A stretch of DNA of 64,000 bases from Patescibacteria group bacterium (GTDB lineage: Bacteria > Patescibacteriota > Minisyncoccia > UBA10092): the NCBI GenBank assembly GCA_043812515.1, contig JBDRMC010000004.1, forward strand, positions 724 to 64,723, in the 5' to 3' direction. The notes beneath the pieces were generated by a model. It did no database searches. It was not told the origin of the DNA and saw nothing but the letters and a program-made list of their open reading frames with translations. The translations under genes and the position numbers were made by a program. Shown piece after piece: positions 8,442 through 29,288 of the stretch. How positions within the stretch are numbered: position 1 is the first letter of the stretch; every line of letters begins with the position of its first letter.

Positions 8442-8837
8442 ATGAAAGAAAAAGACAAATCCACAATTTATGAGCGCCTTTTGAAATCAAGGTTTTTTTT
8501 CATTTTTTTAATTCCGGTTTCTCTGGCTTTGCTGTTAGGTATTTTTCAGCAATTCTATTATCGTTATCAAGTTCAGACAAAATTAAACGAACTTAATGCG
8601 GAAGTCGCCAATTATAAAAAGCAACAGGAAGACTTAACCAAGTTGATTGAGTATTATCAAGATCCGTCCAATCTGGAAAATGAAGCGCGGGTGCGGCTGA
8701 ATCTTAAAAAAGAGGGCGAGAAAGTTGTTATAATTTTACCGACCGCGACTTCAACCGGTGAAAGCCAAACATCCGATAGCGATGAAAATATGCCAAATTA
8801 CAAACAATGGTGGTATTATTTTTTTCCGCGGGATTAG
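8442..8837 (+). CDS. septum formation initiator family protein (FtsB/DivIC-like)
   Basis: N-terminal TM helix, then coiled coil LNELNAEVANYKKQQEDLTKLIEYYQDPSNLENEARVRLNLKKEGE. The last 10 nt overlap tRNA-Gly. Confidence 0.7.
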   Translation: MKEKDKSTIYERLLKSRFFFIFLIPVSLALLLGIFQQFYYRYQVQTKLNELNAEVANYKKQQEDLTKLIEYYQDPSNLENEARVRLNLKKEGEKVVIILPTATSTGESQTSDSDENMPNYKQWWYYFFPRD

Positions 8838-8898
8838 TATAGTGGTAGTACGGTTGCTTCCCAAGCAACAAGTGCGAGTCCGATTCTCGCATCCCGCT
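8828..8898 (+). tRNA. tRNA-Gly (anticodon CCC)
   Basis: Hand-folded cloverleaf: acceptor GCGGGAT/ATCCCGC, anticodon stem GTTGC/GCAAC, loop TTCCCAA, T arm GCGAG-TCCGATT-CTCGC. CCA is not encoded. Confidence 0.9.
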
Positions 8899-8940
8899 CA
8901 GAAGCGATACAATTAAACTAAAAATTCAGTTAAATAATAT

Positions 8941-9255
8941 ATGAACAAATCAAAAATAATTTTTTATAGCATAATCAATTCTTTGGGGGTTTTGGCATAT
9001 ATTTTTCTACTGGTGTCGTTTATGAATAACGGCAAGAATTTTTTCGGTAATTCGTCCGAAATTTTAATTGGAATGGTTATGCTTTCACTTTTTGTTTTAT
9101 CGGCCAGTGTCACTGGCCTGTTGGTTTTGGGCCGCCCCATCCACCTTTATTTTAATGGCTTCAAAAAAGAAGCCCTGGTCCTACTCTTCTCAACCCTTGC
9201 TTGTCTGTTTGCTCTTGTGGTGGTAATTTTAATTATCTTTGTGATATTAAAATAA
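8941..9255 (+). CDS. hypothetical membrane protein (3 predicted TM helices)
   Basis: 104 aa, strongly hydrophobic segments. The stop codon abuts tRNA-Thr. Confidence 0.65.
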   Translation: MNKSKIIFYSIINSLGVLAYIFLLVSFMNNGKNFFGNSSEILIGMVMLSLFVLSASVTGLLVLGRPIHLYFNGFKKEALVLLFSTLACLFALVVVILIIFVILK

Positions 9256-9328
9256 GCCGCCTTAGCTCAGTCGGTAGAGCAGCGCTTTCGTAAAGCGAAG
9301 GTCCCCAGTTCGATTCTGGGAGGCGGCT
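9256..9328 (+). tRNA. tRNA-Thr (anticodon CGU)
   Basis: Acceptor GCCGCCT/AGGCGGC, D arm GCTC-AGTCGGTA-GAGC, anticodon loop TTCGTAA, T arm CCCAG-TTCGATT-CTGGG. Confidence 0.9.
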
Positions 9329-9346
9329 CTGGAAATATAAAAAAAT

Positions 9347-27072: not shown

Positions 27073-28113
27073 ATGGGCAATTTAGTTTTATATCGCAAAT
27101 ACCGTCCTCAGGAATGGGATGAAGTTATCGGACAGGAACACGTTGTGCGGACTTTAACTAACGCGCTGAAACTTGAACGCGTCGGCCACGCGTACTTGTT
27201 CGGCGGGCCGAGAGGCACGGGGAAAACAACAATCGCCCGTCTTTTGGCGAAGTCGCTCGGTTGCGCCGACCTGGATTTGATAGAAATTGACGCCGCGTCC
27301 AACCGCGGGATTGATGAAATACGCCAGCTCCGTGAAGGAATAAAGTTCTCGCCAACAGCCGGGAAATATAAGGTCTTTATTATTGACGAAGTCCATCAGC
27401 TTACCAAAGAAGCGTTTAACGCCTTGTTAAAAACTTTGGAAGAACCGCCGGCGCATGCCATTTTTATTTTAGCGACCACGGAGGCCCATAAAGTGCCGGA
27501 AACAATTCTTTCCCGCGTCCAGCAATTCGCTTTCAGAAGATTGTCGGTGGCGGAAATAATCAAGAAACTTCAACTGATAGTTTCCGCGGAAAAAATTAAA
27601 ATCAATGATGGCGCTCTGCGACTGATTGCCAATTACGCCGGGGGCAGTTATCGCGACGGCGAATCGATGCTGGAACAATTGAGGGTTTGGGATGACAAAA
27701 TGATAGAAGAAACCGACATTGAGGAGCTTTTGGGAGCGGTGGATTTTGAAAAGGTAAAAATAATGACGGATTATTTGGGCGGAGCCGACGCCAAAGGCGC
27801 GATTGATTATGTCGGAACTCTGACGGAAAAAGGAACCGATTTGGAAATGTTCGCCAAAGCGCTGGTGAGCCATTTGCGGAAAATAATGCTGGTAAAAGTT
27901 GACAGTTCTTTGGTTAATTTGATGGCGCAAGAATTAACCGCCGACCAGATGGAAATCGTAAAAAAGCAGGCAGAAATTTTTTCCCTGAACAGCGTTGCTC
28001 AGGCGGTGAAAATAATTATGACCGCCCAAAACGACATCAAACGCTCCCCCATCCCCTCCCTCCCCATCGAACTGGCAGTAGTGGAAATCATTAACAATAA
28101 AAATTCAGTGTAA
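27073..28113 (+). CDS. dnaX: DNA polymerase III gamma/tau subunit, domains I-III only
   Basis: YRKYRPQEWDEVIGQEHV..., GPRGTGKTT Walker A, IIDEVHQL Walker B, SRVQ sensor. 346 aa. Confidence 0.9.
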   Translation: MGNLVLYRKYRPQEWDEVIGQEHVVRTLTNALKLERVGHAYLFGGPRGTGKTTIARLLAKSLGCADLDLIEIDAASNRGIDEIRQLREGIKFSPTAGKYKVFIIDEVHQLTKEAFNALLKTLEEPPAHAIFILATTEAHKVPETILSRVQQFAFRRLSVAEIIKKLQLIVSAEKIKINDGALRLIANYAGGSYRDGESMLEQLRVWDDKMIEETDIEELLGAVDFEKVKIMTDYLGGADAKGAIDYVGTLTEKGTDLEMFAKALVSHLRKIMLVKVDSSLVNLMAQELTADQMEIVKKQAEIFSLNSVAQAVKIIMTAQNDIKRSPIPSLPIELAVVEIINNKNSV

Positions 28114-28123
28114 TAGGTATTTG

Positions 28124-28173
28124 TAAATATTCGGGGATCGCCTGCCTGCGCAGGCAGGTCTAATGGTAGGACA
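28124..28173 (+). pseudogene. duplicated 5' portion of tRNA-Gln (7 nt flank + positions 1-25) split by an 18-bp palindrome
   Basis: 28124-28140 is identical to 28437-28453, and 28159-28173 is identical to 28454-28468. The copy diverges after GGACA. Confidence 0.85.
28141..28158. repeat. perfect 18-bp G+C-rich palindrome CCTGCCTGCGCAGGCAGG
   Basis: Self-complementary over all 18 nt, 14 of 18 G/C. Inserted between tRNA positions 10 and 11 of the partial copy. Confidence 0.9.
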
Positions 28174-28181
28174 ATAAAATT

Positions 28182-28439
28182 ATGAAATGGTGCGTATATT
28201 TTCTAAGAAGTCTAACAAAAGATAATTGGATATATGTCGGAAGCACTAATAACTCGGAAAAAAGATTGCAAGAGCATAATTCTGGAAAAGTTTTAGCAAC
28301 AAAGGCCTATTCTCCATATTTGATAATTTATGTAGAATACTTTGATAACGAACATGACGCGCGACAAAGAGAAAGATATTTTAAATGTTGGAAAGGTAGA
28401 ATTGAAAAGAAGGAGATATTGAGGCGTATTTTGAAATAA
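28182..28439 (+). CDS. small stand-alone GIY-YIG nuclease-domain protein (85 aa)
   Basis: WCVYFLRS...WIYVGSTNNSEKRLQEHNSG...YLIIYVEYFDNEHDARQRERYFK matches the GIY / YVG / R / E / N core of the GIY-YIG fold. The stop codon lies 4 nt before tRNA-Gln. Confidence 0.8.
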   Translation: MKWCVYFLRSLTKDNWIYVGSTNNSEKRLQEHNSGKVLATKAYSPYLIIYVEYFDNEHDARQRERYFKCWKGRIEKKEILRRILK

Positions 28440-28443
28440 ATAT

Positions 28444-28514
28444 TCGGGGATCGTCTAATGGTAGGACAGTGGCCTTTGAAGCCATTAATTGGGGTCCGAA
28501 TCCCTGTCCCCGAG
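28444..28514 (+). tRNA. tRNA-Gln (anticodon UUG)
   Basis: Acceptor TCGGGGA/TCCCCGA (U1-A72), discriminator G, anticodon stem GTGGC/GCCAT, loop CTTTGAA, T arm TGGGG-TCCGAAT-CCCTG. Confidence 0.9.
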
Positions 28515-28568
28515 CTGGCATATGCTAATTCAGATAATTGAAATAATCAGTGTTAGAATGGATAAAAA

Positions 28569-29288
28569 ATGAAATATCTCGTTTTTATAATTCCAATCCT
28601 ATTTTTAGCTTTAGTATTAAATTCAGCATATTCAATGACAACAATAATTTATTTTAATGACATACAGAAGATAATTGATATTAATAATATGAGTTATTTT
28701 TCTATTACAAAAACAGAAGGCGCATATTTAAGTATCGACCCCAATGTAATACCATCAATTGGAACAGAAAATATTATATTATCTCTCTTTCTCAGAAAAC
28801 GTGAAAATGCAAAAGATATATCTGAATTTCTAATCTATCCAGTTGGTAGAATTTCTAAAGAAGCGGAAGCTATAGGATTAATAGTTTCTACTAAAACAAA
28901 GGAGAATGATCATGTAGATATTTCTCTCCCAAAAAATTTTTTCGATAAAGTAAAAAATCCATCAGGTTTATTTATTAGAACAACTCAAAATAGCACATTT
29001 CTTTTTCAAGGCATAGACTCAGCTGGAGTAGTGGGTGACCCCAGTTTAACAATAGTAGGAGAAGAATTTGAAAATAAAAATATAGAAGAAAAACAAACTG
29101 TATTGACTCCAAGTGATTATGCAGTGAATATAAAAATACTAGAAAACATCGAAAAAACAGCTAAGAATAGTGAAAAAATATTAGAAAATACCAAGAAAAA
29201 ATTCTACGAAAATCCGTTTATTACATTTATTTTAGGAATTTTTGCTAGCCTAGTAGCTGCCACCATTTATAAGTTTTTTCCTAAATAA
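28569..29288 (+). CDS. hypothetical protein, very AT-rich, N-terminal signal/TM and C-terminal TM anchor
   Basis: 239 aa. LVFIIPILFLALVLNSAYS at the N-terminus and FITFILGIFASLVAATIYKFF at the C-terminus. Composition is far below window average. Confidence 0.65.
   Translation: MKYLVFIIPILFLALVLNSAYSMTTIIYFNDIQKIIDINNMSYFSITKTEGAYLSIDPNVIPSIGTENIILSLFLRKRENAKDISEFLIYPVGRISKEAEAIGLIVSTKTKENDHVDISLPKNFFDKVKNPSGLFIRTTQNSTFLFQGIDSAGVVGDPSLTIVGEEFENKNIEEKQTVLTPSDYAVNIKILENIEKTAKNSEKILENTKKKFYENPFITFILGIFASLVAATIYKFFPK

Follow-up and report, generated by a model that had tools for sequence, protein, structure and literature searches.

A GIY-YIG nuclease gene between a palindrome-split tRNA fragment and an intact tRNA gene: a probable homing-type cassette of bacterial tRNA loci

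Why should a gene for a very small nuclease lie between a broken and an intact copy of the same tRNA sequence? The question is raised by a locus in a Patescibacteria group bacterium (assembly GCA_043812515.1, contig JBDRMC010000004.1), of which we analyzed 64,000 nt (positions 724-64,723 of the forward strand), a stretch referred to here as the window. Between dnaX and the gene for tRNA-Gln(UUG) there is an open reading frame (ORF) for an 85-aa, stand-alone GIY-YIG nuclease, and the 5′ part of the tRNA is found twice, once upstream of the ORF, where a palindrome splits it, and once in the intact tRNA (Table 1). A preliminary description, made from the sequence alone, had proposed that this was a minimal mobile cassette targeting a tRNA gene. 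We conclude, with a probability of roughly 0.6, that the locus is a selfish, free-standing homing-type nuclease cassette that lives in a tRNA transcription unit. On this reading the unit is made up of a GIY-YIG gene of the Slx1/UPF0213 type, a replacement for the 5′ part of the tRNA at the 3′ end of the ORF, and the displaced original 5′ part upstream, which is always interrupted by a lineage-specific, GC-rich palindrome. The relatives of the locus show that the cassette is mobile and specific for a tRNA type, that it regenerates the tRNA it interrupts, and that it decays or is lost in some lineages.

A mobile unit at the dnaX-tRNA-Gln junction

The arrangement of the locus is that given in the preliminary description. 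Exact direct repeats, amounting to 17+15 (16) nt and consisting of a 7-nt flank plus tRNA positions 1-26, enclose the ORF, and their two blocks are parted in the upstream copy only, which stops after GGACA. The tRNA had been placed at 28444-28514 and the copy at its positions 1-25; Rfam agrees with that end, whereas ARAGORN extends the gene to 28515 and the copy reaches position 26, the first 26 nt of the intact tRNA being the second copy of the repeat. Downstream of the dnaX stop codon (28111-28113) the unit opens with TAAATAT-TCGGGGATCG; 8 nt separate the split fragment from the start of the ORF, whose TAA stop stands 4 nt (ATAT) ahead of the 5′ end of the tRNA, as described. Only about 50 nt of the unit are non-coding, and a single ORF lies between the repeats. 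The uninterrupted site in tRNA-Gln that would be the target reads TAAATATTCGGGGATCGTCTAATGGTAGGACA, and the duplex of the empty site reads TAAATATTCGGGGATCGTCTAATGGTAGGACAGTGG.

Table 1. Features of the locus in the window, with the evidence or relation that defines each.
Feature	Position	Strand	Basis or relation
dnaX (DNA polymerase III gamma/tau, 346 aa)	27073..28113	+	ORF; homologous genes with DNA_pol3_delta2/DNAX Pfam matches
Displaced tRNA fragment, part a (7-nt flank and tRNA-Gln positions 1-10), TAAATATTCGGGGATCG	28124..28140	+	Exact 17-nt copy of 28437-28453
Perfect GC-rich 18-bp palindrome (PAL), CCTGCCTGCGCAGGCAGG	28141..28158	.	Clean insertion into the fragment, with tRNA position 10 before it and position 11 after it
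Displaced tRNA fragment, part b (tRNA-Gln positions 11-26; D loop and 3′ strand of the D stem)	28159..28173	+	Exact copy of 28454-28468; (G)TCTAATGGTAGGACA at 28158/9-28173 = 28453/4-28468
85-aa stand-alone GIY-YIG nuclease ORF, Slx1/UPF0213 type (assigned by similarity and predicted fold)	28182..28439	+	Pfam PF01541, PDB sequence matches, AlphaFold fold, dN/dS
7-nt flank TAAATAT, repeated along with the tRNA 5′ part	28437..28443	+	Overlaps the ORF stop TAA (28437-28439)
Intact tRNA-Gln(UUG)	28444..28515	+	ARAGORN; Rfam RF00005 at 28444-28514, 57.8 bits

The structure is found again in other assemblies. In four independent ones (L001-L004; protein identity 77-95%) the order is dnaX, fragment with palindrome, ORF and tRNA-Gln, the palindrome interrupting the fragment at the same position, and the same architecture occurs in L025, from the culture-collection strain Flagellimonas beolgyonensis KCTC 23501. 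With the same arrangement in independent NCBI, JGI and ENA assemblies as well as in a strain's genome, an assembly artefact, which the preliminary description had named as a risk, is excluded in practice. Chance fares as badly in explaining a 17+16-nt exact repeat together with a palindrome that has an expected count of 0.01, and we hold either explanation to be next to impossible.

Is the unit an insertion? We scanned metagenome contigs with the window's DnaX and obtained 80 loci, which together with the window, L001, L002 and L004 form the set analyzed; dnaX, the conserved anchor upstream and outside the cassette, is followed by tRNA-Gln in 73 of these loci. Empty sites, for which the preliminary description had proposed to look, make up 38 of the 73 (dnaX-tRNA gap of at most 100 nt, no ORF), while about 13 are occupied by a GIY-YIG ORF with a copy of the tRNA 5′ part. 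The closest empty site (L089) belongs to a genome whose DnaX is 81% identical to the window's, compared with 86-87% for L001 and L002, and its tRNA-Gln is almost identical to that of the window. Since most relatives are empty at this junction and do not share the window's arrangement, the cassette is an insertion relative to them. An ORF outside any intron or intein, present at some and absent from other copies of a conserved site (about 13 occupied and 38 empty among 73), shows two of the marks of free-standing homing endonuclease genes.

The unit has also passed between hosts. The DnaX proteins of L001 and L004 are only 44% identical, yet their GIY-YIG proteins share 88% of residues (90% nucleotide identity, dS 0.38), which indicates horizontal transfer of the cassette into the same dnaX-tRNA-Gln junction of distantly related genomes; for L001 and L002 the corresponding values are 96% for DnaX and 86% for the nuclease. 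The DNA of L001 and L004 becomes highly similar near position +1 of the fragment and ceases to be so near position 28 of the intact tRNA, and the flank further upstream and the remaining two-thirds of the tRNA, on its 3′ side, are particular to each host; these limits imply that the transferred unit is bounded on both sides by the 5′ part of the tRNA. The phylogeny of the element is discordant with that of its hosts, as seen both in these identities and in protein clades that follow the tRNA type across phyla. In a neighbor-joining tree built on about 80 aligned residues and carrying no support values, clades track tRNA type and hairpin type and not the phylum label of the host, and one tRNA-Asn clade unites Gammaproteobacteria, Bdellovibrionales and a Patescibacteria bin.

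Other relatives carry different genes at the same place. L087, with a DnaX 87% identical to the window's, has a GIY-YIG protein only 41% identical and a different hairpin (a 63-nt GC-rich insert); L145 carries an ORF matching Pfam LAGLIDADG_3; and in some 10 loci the junction is occupied by a conserved ORF (about 225 aa) whose N-terminal region is HTH-like. This ORF was seen in L088 (3094-3765), L092, L093, L102, L132, L136, L141, L143 and L152. Its assignment to the LAGLIDADG family was dropped, as the motif was seen by eye and no Pfam match was obtained, leaving L145 as the only confirmed case of LAGLIDADG_3. The dnaX-tRNA-Gln junction thus looks like a hot spot for several homing-type genes. 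In two loci, L094 (1324-1445) and L109 (1931-2035), pseudo-copies of tRNA-Gln with GC-rich hairpins and no ORF stand ahead of the intact tRNA; the hairpins of L094 lie in the D loop and the T loop, and those of L109 are a 20-nt palindrome and a second hairpin. Both are probably decayed cassettes. The fragment of L109 differs in its acceptor stem from the local tRNA and that of L004 has 2 mismatches; since fragments decay in this way, we rejected the idea that pairing between RNAs requires fragment and tRNA to be identical; recent insertion or gene conversion accounts better for their identity. Just upstream of the fragment, the first 10 nt of the tRNA are tandemly repeated in L001 (2925-2953) and a 14-nt flank is tandemly repeated in L002 (2933-2960). 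These small duplications may be scars of repeated break repair.

The genes neighboring the cassette in the window code for a patatin, DnaX, a 239-aa protein of no known family, a DUF4325 protein, an ExoIII-family protein and a beta-CASP protein, and no recombinase, integrase or transposase domain was found among them or among the genes called around L001 and L002, the two relatives screened in this respect. At a permissive threshold (E<=1) Rfam matched the tRNA alone within 27900-28700, with no intron, ribozyme or other RNA family, and the tRNA itself is present intact and uninterrupted. A known RNA element and a group I intron with a homing endonuclease were therefore rejected. A consensus scan of the plus strand found neither a promoter nor a terminator for the ORF. 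It gave no support to TAAATAT as a -10 box, and the palindrome is unsupported as a terminator of dnaX, having no T run. The window contains no second GIY-YIG gene, and its other two tRNA genes show no fragment or cassette structure. Ordinary ORFs are packed just as tightly against these, one (8442-8837) overlapping tRNA-Gly (8828-8899) by 10 nt and another (8941-9255) abutting tRNA-Thr (9256-9329) with 0 nt between them, so that close packing of ORF and tRNA is not in itself special to the cassette. In L003, whose cassette is 95% identical to the window's, the segment 28516-30612 of the window (239-aa ORF, DUF4325 ORF and ExoIII-family gene) is missing (478-505) and the beta-CASP gene directly follows the tRNA; both sides of tRNA-Gln are therefore variable.

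The nuclease

The ORF codes for a complete GIY-YIG domain, as had been proposed: it matches PF01541 with an E-value of 7.9e-16 (58.6 bits against a cut-off of 22.6) over profile positions 1-75 of 78. The preliminary description had made its proposal depend on the catalytic residues, and the residues of the GIY-YIG motif are in place, with Y6, Y18, G20, R28, E31, H32, N33, R63 and E64 invariant in 10 homologues; as in the family at large, the Tyr, Arg and Glu among them would be the catalytic ones. Its suggestion of an affinity to I-TevI and the Seg proteins had to be given up. The sequence matches in the PDB are the UPF0213 protein EF2693 (1YWL, 7e-6) and SLX1 (6e-4), with BH0048 also among the closest solved structures and neither I-TevI nor UvrC among the matches. 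The AlphaFold model (pLDDT 92.8; element order E-E-H-E-H-H) has the GIY-YIG fold of a three-stranded sheet with helices, and its best fold matches are Slx1, BH0048 and the plant protein HIGLE, at a TM-score of about 0.7 (0.70 to Slx1 nuclease domains); UvrC is a weak match (TM 0.45, E about 3), and no I-TevI-type enzyme is among the fold matches. Judged by sequence similarity and predicted structure, the protein belongs to the Slx1/UPF0213 (URI) branch and not to the I-TevI/Seg homing branch. Its closest relatives on both counts are Slx1, HIGLE and UPF0213 proteins such as E. coli YhbQ, B. subtilis YazA, EF2693 (1YWL) and BH0048 (1ZG2), and minimal prokaryotic GIY-YIG domains were already placed in the Slx1 cluster by Dunin-Horkawicz et al. 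in 2006 (PMC1564403). The 85-aa protein is the catalytic domain and no more: it has no residues outside it, no separate DNA-binding domain and no counterpart of the C-terminal zinc finger of eukaryotic Slx1, which also needs Slx4, a partner equally missing here.

Far from being a single case, the protein belongs to a very large family, with 16,245 clusters (50% identity) matching the profile at E<=1e-3 and 3,070 at 1e-10. A look-up of the exact product gave no match, nor did a tblastn search with the ORF in GenBank phages and PLSDB plasmids at 1e-5. Many members of the family are annotated in databases with 20-55 additional N-terminal residues, plausibly the work of gene callers that extend the ORF upstream through the tRNA fragment and the hairpin.

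Among five members of the window's clade dN/dS is 0.04-0.16, with dS ranging from 0.4 to more than 1, which indicates that the gene is kept functional. Selection in this clade, strongly purifying at a fixed site even as dS exceeds 1, also suits a quite different reading, in which the gene has been domesticated or otherwise benefits the host, by acting in repair at highly transcribed tRNA loci, by guarding tRNA genes against integrating elements, or in the metabolism of tRNA or other RNA. It would be kept near the tRNA for co-expression, and the fragment and hairpin would serve to regulate or process the transcript that gene and tRNA share. The ORF always has the orientation of the tRNA and often overlaps it, it showed no promoter or terminator of its own in the consensus scan, the family is very large, and Dunin-Horkawicz et al. 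suggested a role with RNA for prokaryotic Slx1 homologues on the strength of a GIY-YIG domain fused to a TrmH-like tRNA methyltransferase (PMC1564403), all of which would fit. We nevertheless find a host function improbable: the gene is missing at the same site in most relatives, unrelated GIY-YIG lineages and LAGLIDADG-type ORFs use the same junction, cassette and host phylogenies disagree, and relics without an ORF exist. A role of the hairpin in a 5′-UTR or in RNA processing is further contradicted by its presence in tRNA fragments on either side of the ORF and by the lack of a sense-strand bias, both described below.

Other tRNA genes, other phyla and the palindrome

The preliminary description had also proposed a search for further copies, and relatives were found in further genomes, where they adjoin other tRNAs. 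A scan with a profile, covering one genome per species, yielded 80 loci holding 87 GIY-YIG ORFs, of which 66 abut a tRNA on the same strand: 39 lie 0-130 nt upstream of it, often overlapping it by 10-23 nt, and 27 lie at most 320 nt downstream. For the other 21 no tRNA was called, several of them standing at contig ends or beside tRNA fragments. About 14 tRNA specificities are represented (Gln, Arg, Asn, Leu, Glu, Phe, Ser, Pro, Lys, Ala, Ile, Gly, Val and Met), and the host labels include Bacteroidota, Patescibacteria, Gammaproteobacteria, Planctomycetia, Ignavibacteria, Bdellovibrionales and Omnitrophota, among others. When the species scan is pooled with the window and its first relatives, 46 ORFs have a tRNA just downstream, and in 41 of these a tRNA 5′ copy with a GC-rich hairpin insert lies upstream of the ORF (the copy is clear in 35). 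The reading frame often extends into the tRNA, the inserts tend to fall where the D arm begins or ends (9/10 and 20-23), and some fragments carry double, nested or tandem inserts (L025, L036, L041, L028, L040). A mirror type also exists (L053, L061, L064, L051, L052), in which the intact tRNA comes first and is followed by the ORF and by a tRNA 3′ part split in the T loop after C56-A59. Taken together, the two types show that the hairpin always belongs to the spare fragment, be this upstream or downstream of the ORF. A third group, specific to Bacteroidota (L054-L080, e.g., L063 2842-3000; L031), has GIY-YIG ORFs of about 100 aa located 120-290 nt downstream of tRNA-Phe, tRNA-Arg, tRNA-Val or tRNA-Glu; here the 3′ flank of the tRNA (GAAGCAGAAAAGC...) is duplicated on both sides of the ORF, and the inverted repeat, CCTGAAGCGA...TCTGCTTCAGG, is distinct from the CCTGCC palindrome. 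Whole units of ORF and palindrome-bearing fragment form tandem arrays in L061 (2848-4330, up to three copies), L073 (2880-3600), L013 (2400-3330) and L011, and the contig of P0008 has two GIY-YIG genes 370 nt apart.

Could these units be what is left of integrase-type islands, reduced to a cargo nuclease and attachment repeats? In such islands and in prophages, direct repeats of part of a tRNA flank the foreign DNA and the element's copy regenerates the gene (bioRxiv 10.1101/2022.07.05.498093), a hallmark that the cassette shares at both of its ends, and the segment just downstream of the tRNA is variable, as its absence from L003 shows. The resemblance stops there. The same unit of about 300 nt, and not of kilobases, recurs with the same boundaries in dozens of genomes and at about 14 tRNA specificities; it contains no recombinase, and none turned up in the neighborhoods screened in the window, L001 and L002; its repeat is the 5′ part of the tRNA and not the usual 3′ end; one copy is always broken by a palindrome; and the frame of the ORF often runs into the tRNA. 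An origin as an island remnant is therefore very improbable.

The palindrome itself had been described as splitting the upstream copy, and it turned out to be a conserved component of the displaced fragment across phyla. In the window it occurs once, even with 3 mismatches allowed (expected 0.01). It is identical in L001, L002, L004, L005, L008, L043, L081, L104 and L126 and has one mismatch in L003, and within the window's clade all 18 of its 18 positions are conserved while about 60% of synonymous sites differ, which means that it is kept as a sequence and not merely as a structure. The hairpin insert often reads CCTGCCTGC(CG)GCAGGCAGG; a 20-nt form, CCTGCCTGCCGGCAGGCAGG, accompanies tRNAs for Arg, Asn, Leu and Lys, the 18-nt form accompanies Gln, and longer relatives such as CCCGCCTGACTGACGTCAGTCGGGCAGG accompany other tRNAs. 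The type of hairpin co-varies with the protein clade, the cognate palindrome adjoining the nuclease gene. When the stability of 40 inserts was compared between strands, 13 favored one strand and 18 the other; the lack of a sense-strand bias argues for a palindrome that works in DNA and against an RNA hairpin.

At bacterial loci nearly every copy of the palindrome lies beside a GIY-YIG ORF. In IMG/VR, 35 stretches held the 20-mer and 25 the 18-mer, many more than chance would give, and only 1 of 71 sites had a GIY-YIG ORF nearby and 1 of 71 a tRNA; L198 is a typical cassette. These solitary viral copies led us to reject the idea that the palindrome is exclusive to the cassette. Most of them lie in other contexts on GC-rich contigs, and those inspected in L167 and L212 flank ORFs between genes. 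Lone palindromes in non-tRNA contexts were noted in L167 (10596, 11254), L196, L212 and L213 (5704/6360) and L175 (8396); some are paired about 657 nt apart and bracket an ORF, with no GIY-YIG gene on the contig stretch, and several have short flanking direct repeats (e.g., 14 nt in L175). In L191 (2239-2330) the 20-nt palindrome sits in the variable loop of a phage tRNA-Met that ARAGORN still calls as a tRNA, from which it follows that the palindrome can occupy an otherwise intact tRNA gene. A viral-contig tRNA-Met in L168 (about 8570-8660) likewise contains it.

These observations bring up a reading in which it is the palindrome that is primarily recognized and that truly moves. The nuclease, being Slx1-like, would cut the extruded cruciform or hairpin, or the strand opposite to it in a heteroduplex, and so drive the copying of the palindrome and of the DNA linked to it; tRNA genes would be favored for the small hairpins formed by their D and T arms and as conserved places where landing is safe. 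The logic would be that of REP/RAYT or IS200/IS605 elements with a hydrolytic GIY-YIG enzyme. The best fold and sequence matches of the protein, Slx1, HIGLE and UPF0213, are branched-DNA nucleases, and the palindrome co-varies with the protein clade, keeps 18 of 18 positions where synonymous sites are saturated, shows the strand symmetry (13 versus 18) of a DNA-level palindrome, is found nested, in tandem or doubled in L028, L040, L061, L025 and L041, and stands alone in viral contigs and within the variable loop of a phage tRNA-Met. Yet it does not disperse as REP elements do, with one copy in 64 kb and bacterial copies nearly all beside the GIY-YIG ORF; GIY-YIG enzymes hydrolyse DNA and cannot rejoin it, so that insertion would need host repair; in the fragments the palindrome lacks a flanking target duplication; and the viral contigs that bear it have no GIY-YIG gene in cis. 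We consider this reading to be unlikely. A wider proposal along the same lines, which we offer as a tentative possibility, is that small Slx1/UPF0213-type GIY-YIG proteins and lineage-specific palindromes form an unrecognized, pan-bacterial class of mobile elements, in which a structure-specific nuclease acts on its cognate hairpin or cruciform, the palindrome also spreads alone, and tRNA genes serve as landing pads that provide homology.

A homing-type mode of movement and its meaning

For the selfish homing-type cassette that we prefer, we propose the following course of events. In a tRNA gene that lacks the cassette, the nuclease would make a break within or close to the D arm, or within the T loop for the mirror type, and the break would be repaired from a cassette-bearing copy, with the short flanking tRNA segments as homology. 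A break at the position of the palindrome (10/11 here) would expose both of the arms needed, part a of the fragment and the "patch" copy at the tRNA, and repair would copy palindrome, fragment, ORF and patch while leaving a working tRNA. The ORF, with no promoter of its own, would be read from the transcript that also yields the tRNA, and cleavage by RNase P at the 5′ end of the tRNA would limit its expression; co-transcription and RNase P trimming at this locus had been put forward in the preliminary description and stay an inference. The palindrome would act at the level of DNA, most likely by destroying the nuclease site in the spare fragment and by shortening a direct repeat that would otherwise delete the cassette, and it may also be a branched-DNA substrate of the Slx1-like nuclease. 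Slx1 cuts branched DNA, which fits a role for a palindrome able to form a cruciform.

The closest precedent is SegB of phage T4. SegB is a free-standing GIY-YIG homing endonuclease encoded in the tRNA gene cluster of T4, and it recognizes a conserved motif of the tRNA T loop, GGTTCRANTCC (PMC2330249). Its gene is co-transcribed with the tRNAs, and maturation of the downstream tRNA cuts the message beside the stop codon; the enzyme still cleaves the tRNA genes of its own carrier, low expression being invoked for self-protection, and its authors inferred a two-domain layout like that of I-TevI with a C-terminal NUMOD3 DNA-binding motif (PMC2330249). Our proposal of a break in the D arm or T loop draws on this parallel, and the same precedent supports the RNase P idea by analogy. 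Like segB, the gene in the window lies outside any intron, stands among tRNA genes and is sporadic among relatives. In contrast to the phage enzyme of the I-TevI/Seg branch, we are dealing with a bare 85-aa domain of the Slx1/UPF0213 type in cellular genomes of many phyla, and the consulted parts of the SegB paper describe neither a duplicated tRNA fragment nor a palindrome at its locus (PMC2330249).

REP/RAYT and IS200/IS605 elements resemble the cassette in having a cognate, co-varying palindrome next to a nuclease gene, and differ from it in that here no HUH (Y1) transposase is present, the only ORF being GIY-YIG, and no palindromes are dispersed over the 64 kb. In fungal mitochondria there are mobile endonuclease ORFs that carry a replacement piece of the host gene, such as the Allomyces atp6 ORF, and GC-rich palindromic clusters that flank mitochondrial tRNA genes, such as the PstI palindromes of Neurospora and the GC clusters of yeast. 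The logic of a patch with a displaced pseudo-copy, and the company of small GC-rich palindromes and tRNA genes, are similar; the mitochondrial cases are organellar, involve other nuclease families and other palindromes, and are not known to include a documented three-part module.

Several points weigh against the homing-type reading. The cleavage activity of the protein and its target are putative, and a bare catalytic domain of 85 aa makes recognition of a long site hard to account for. Any site inside the tRNA is still present in the intact copy, which leaves self-immunity unexplained, an objection that is softened by the fact that T4 SegB has the same problem and cuts its carrier's own tRNA genes. 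The comparison of L001 with L004 implies homology arms of about 10-28 nt, which is short for RecA-dependent repair. Persistence at one site through dS>1 under strong purifying selection, as in the window's clade, is also what a function of benefit to the host would produce. Between the genes of GC-rich viral contigs the identical palindrome is also found by itself, with neither GIY-YIG gene nor tRNA nearby. Finally, the tree that groups cassettes across phyla has the limits given above, and many of its hosts are metagenome bins whose phylum labels may be wrong.

How much of this is new? The preliminary proposal of a mobile, tRNA-targeting cassette is borne out by empty sites, horizontal transfer and copies at other tRNAs, and needs correction as to its one-off status, the branch of the nuclease and the incidental nature of the palindrome. 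Its statement that no such class of element had been described holds in part: SegB is a precedent for a tRNA-linked GIY-YIG homing gene, while the minimal domain, the duplicated fragment and the palindrome are the new features. Free-standing homing endonuclease genes, SegB included, the tRNA-fragment repeats of integrase elements and the Slx1-like fold were already known; what is apparently new is that a unit of about 300 nt, spread across phyla, combines them and has a conserved palindrome. In the full-text literature searched, outside which most subscription journals lie, we found neither a linkage between small GIY-YIG genes and tRNAs in cellular genomes nor the duplicated fragment or the palindrome described, and no account of the function, tRNA linkage or mobility of bacterial UPF0213 proteins; three full palindrome strings occur in none of the indexed papers.

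Minimal GIY-YIG proteins of the UPF0213/COG2827 type form a large family without a known function, to which the genomic signature and the mobility described here give a testable role. tRNA genes are parasitized by units of about 300 nt as well as by islands of kilobases, and their annotation is affected through pseudo-fragments and over-extended ORF calls. The palindrome of 18-20 nt, near-identical across phyla, makes searching simple. For biochemists, a nuclease of 85 residues that had a defined DNA partner would be attractive as a minimal system. If the pan-bacterial, hairpin-directed alternative were true, it would give a role to a large family and add a hydrolytic, hairpin-directed mechanism to the known ways of moving DNA. 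The element may also contribute to the exchange of tRNA alleles between genomes, including those of Patescibacteria.

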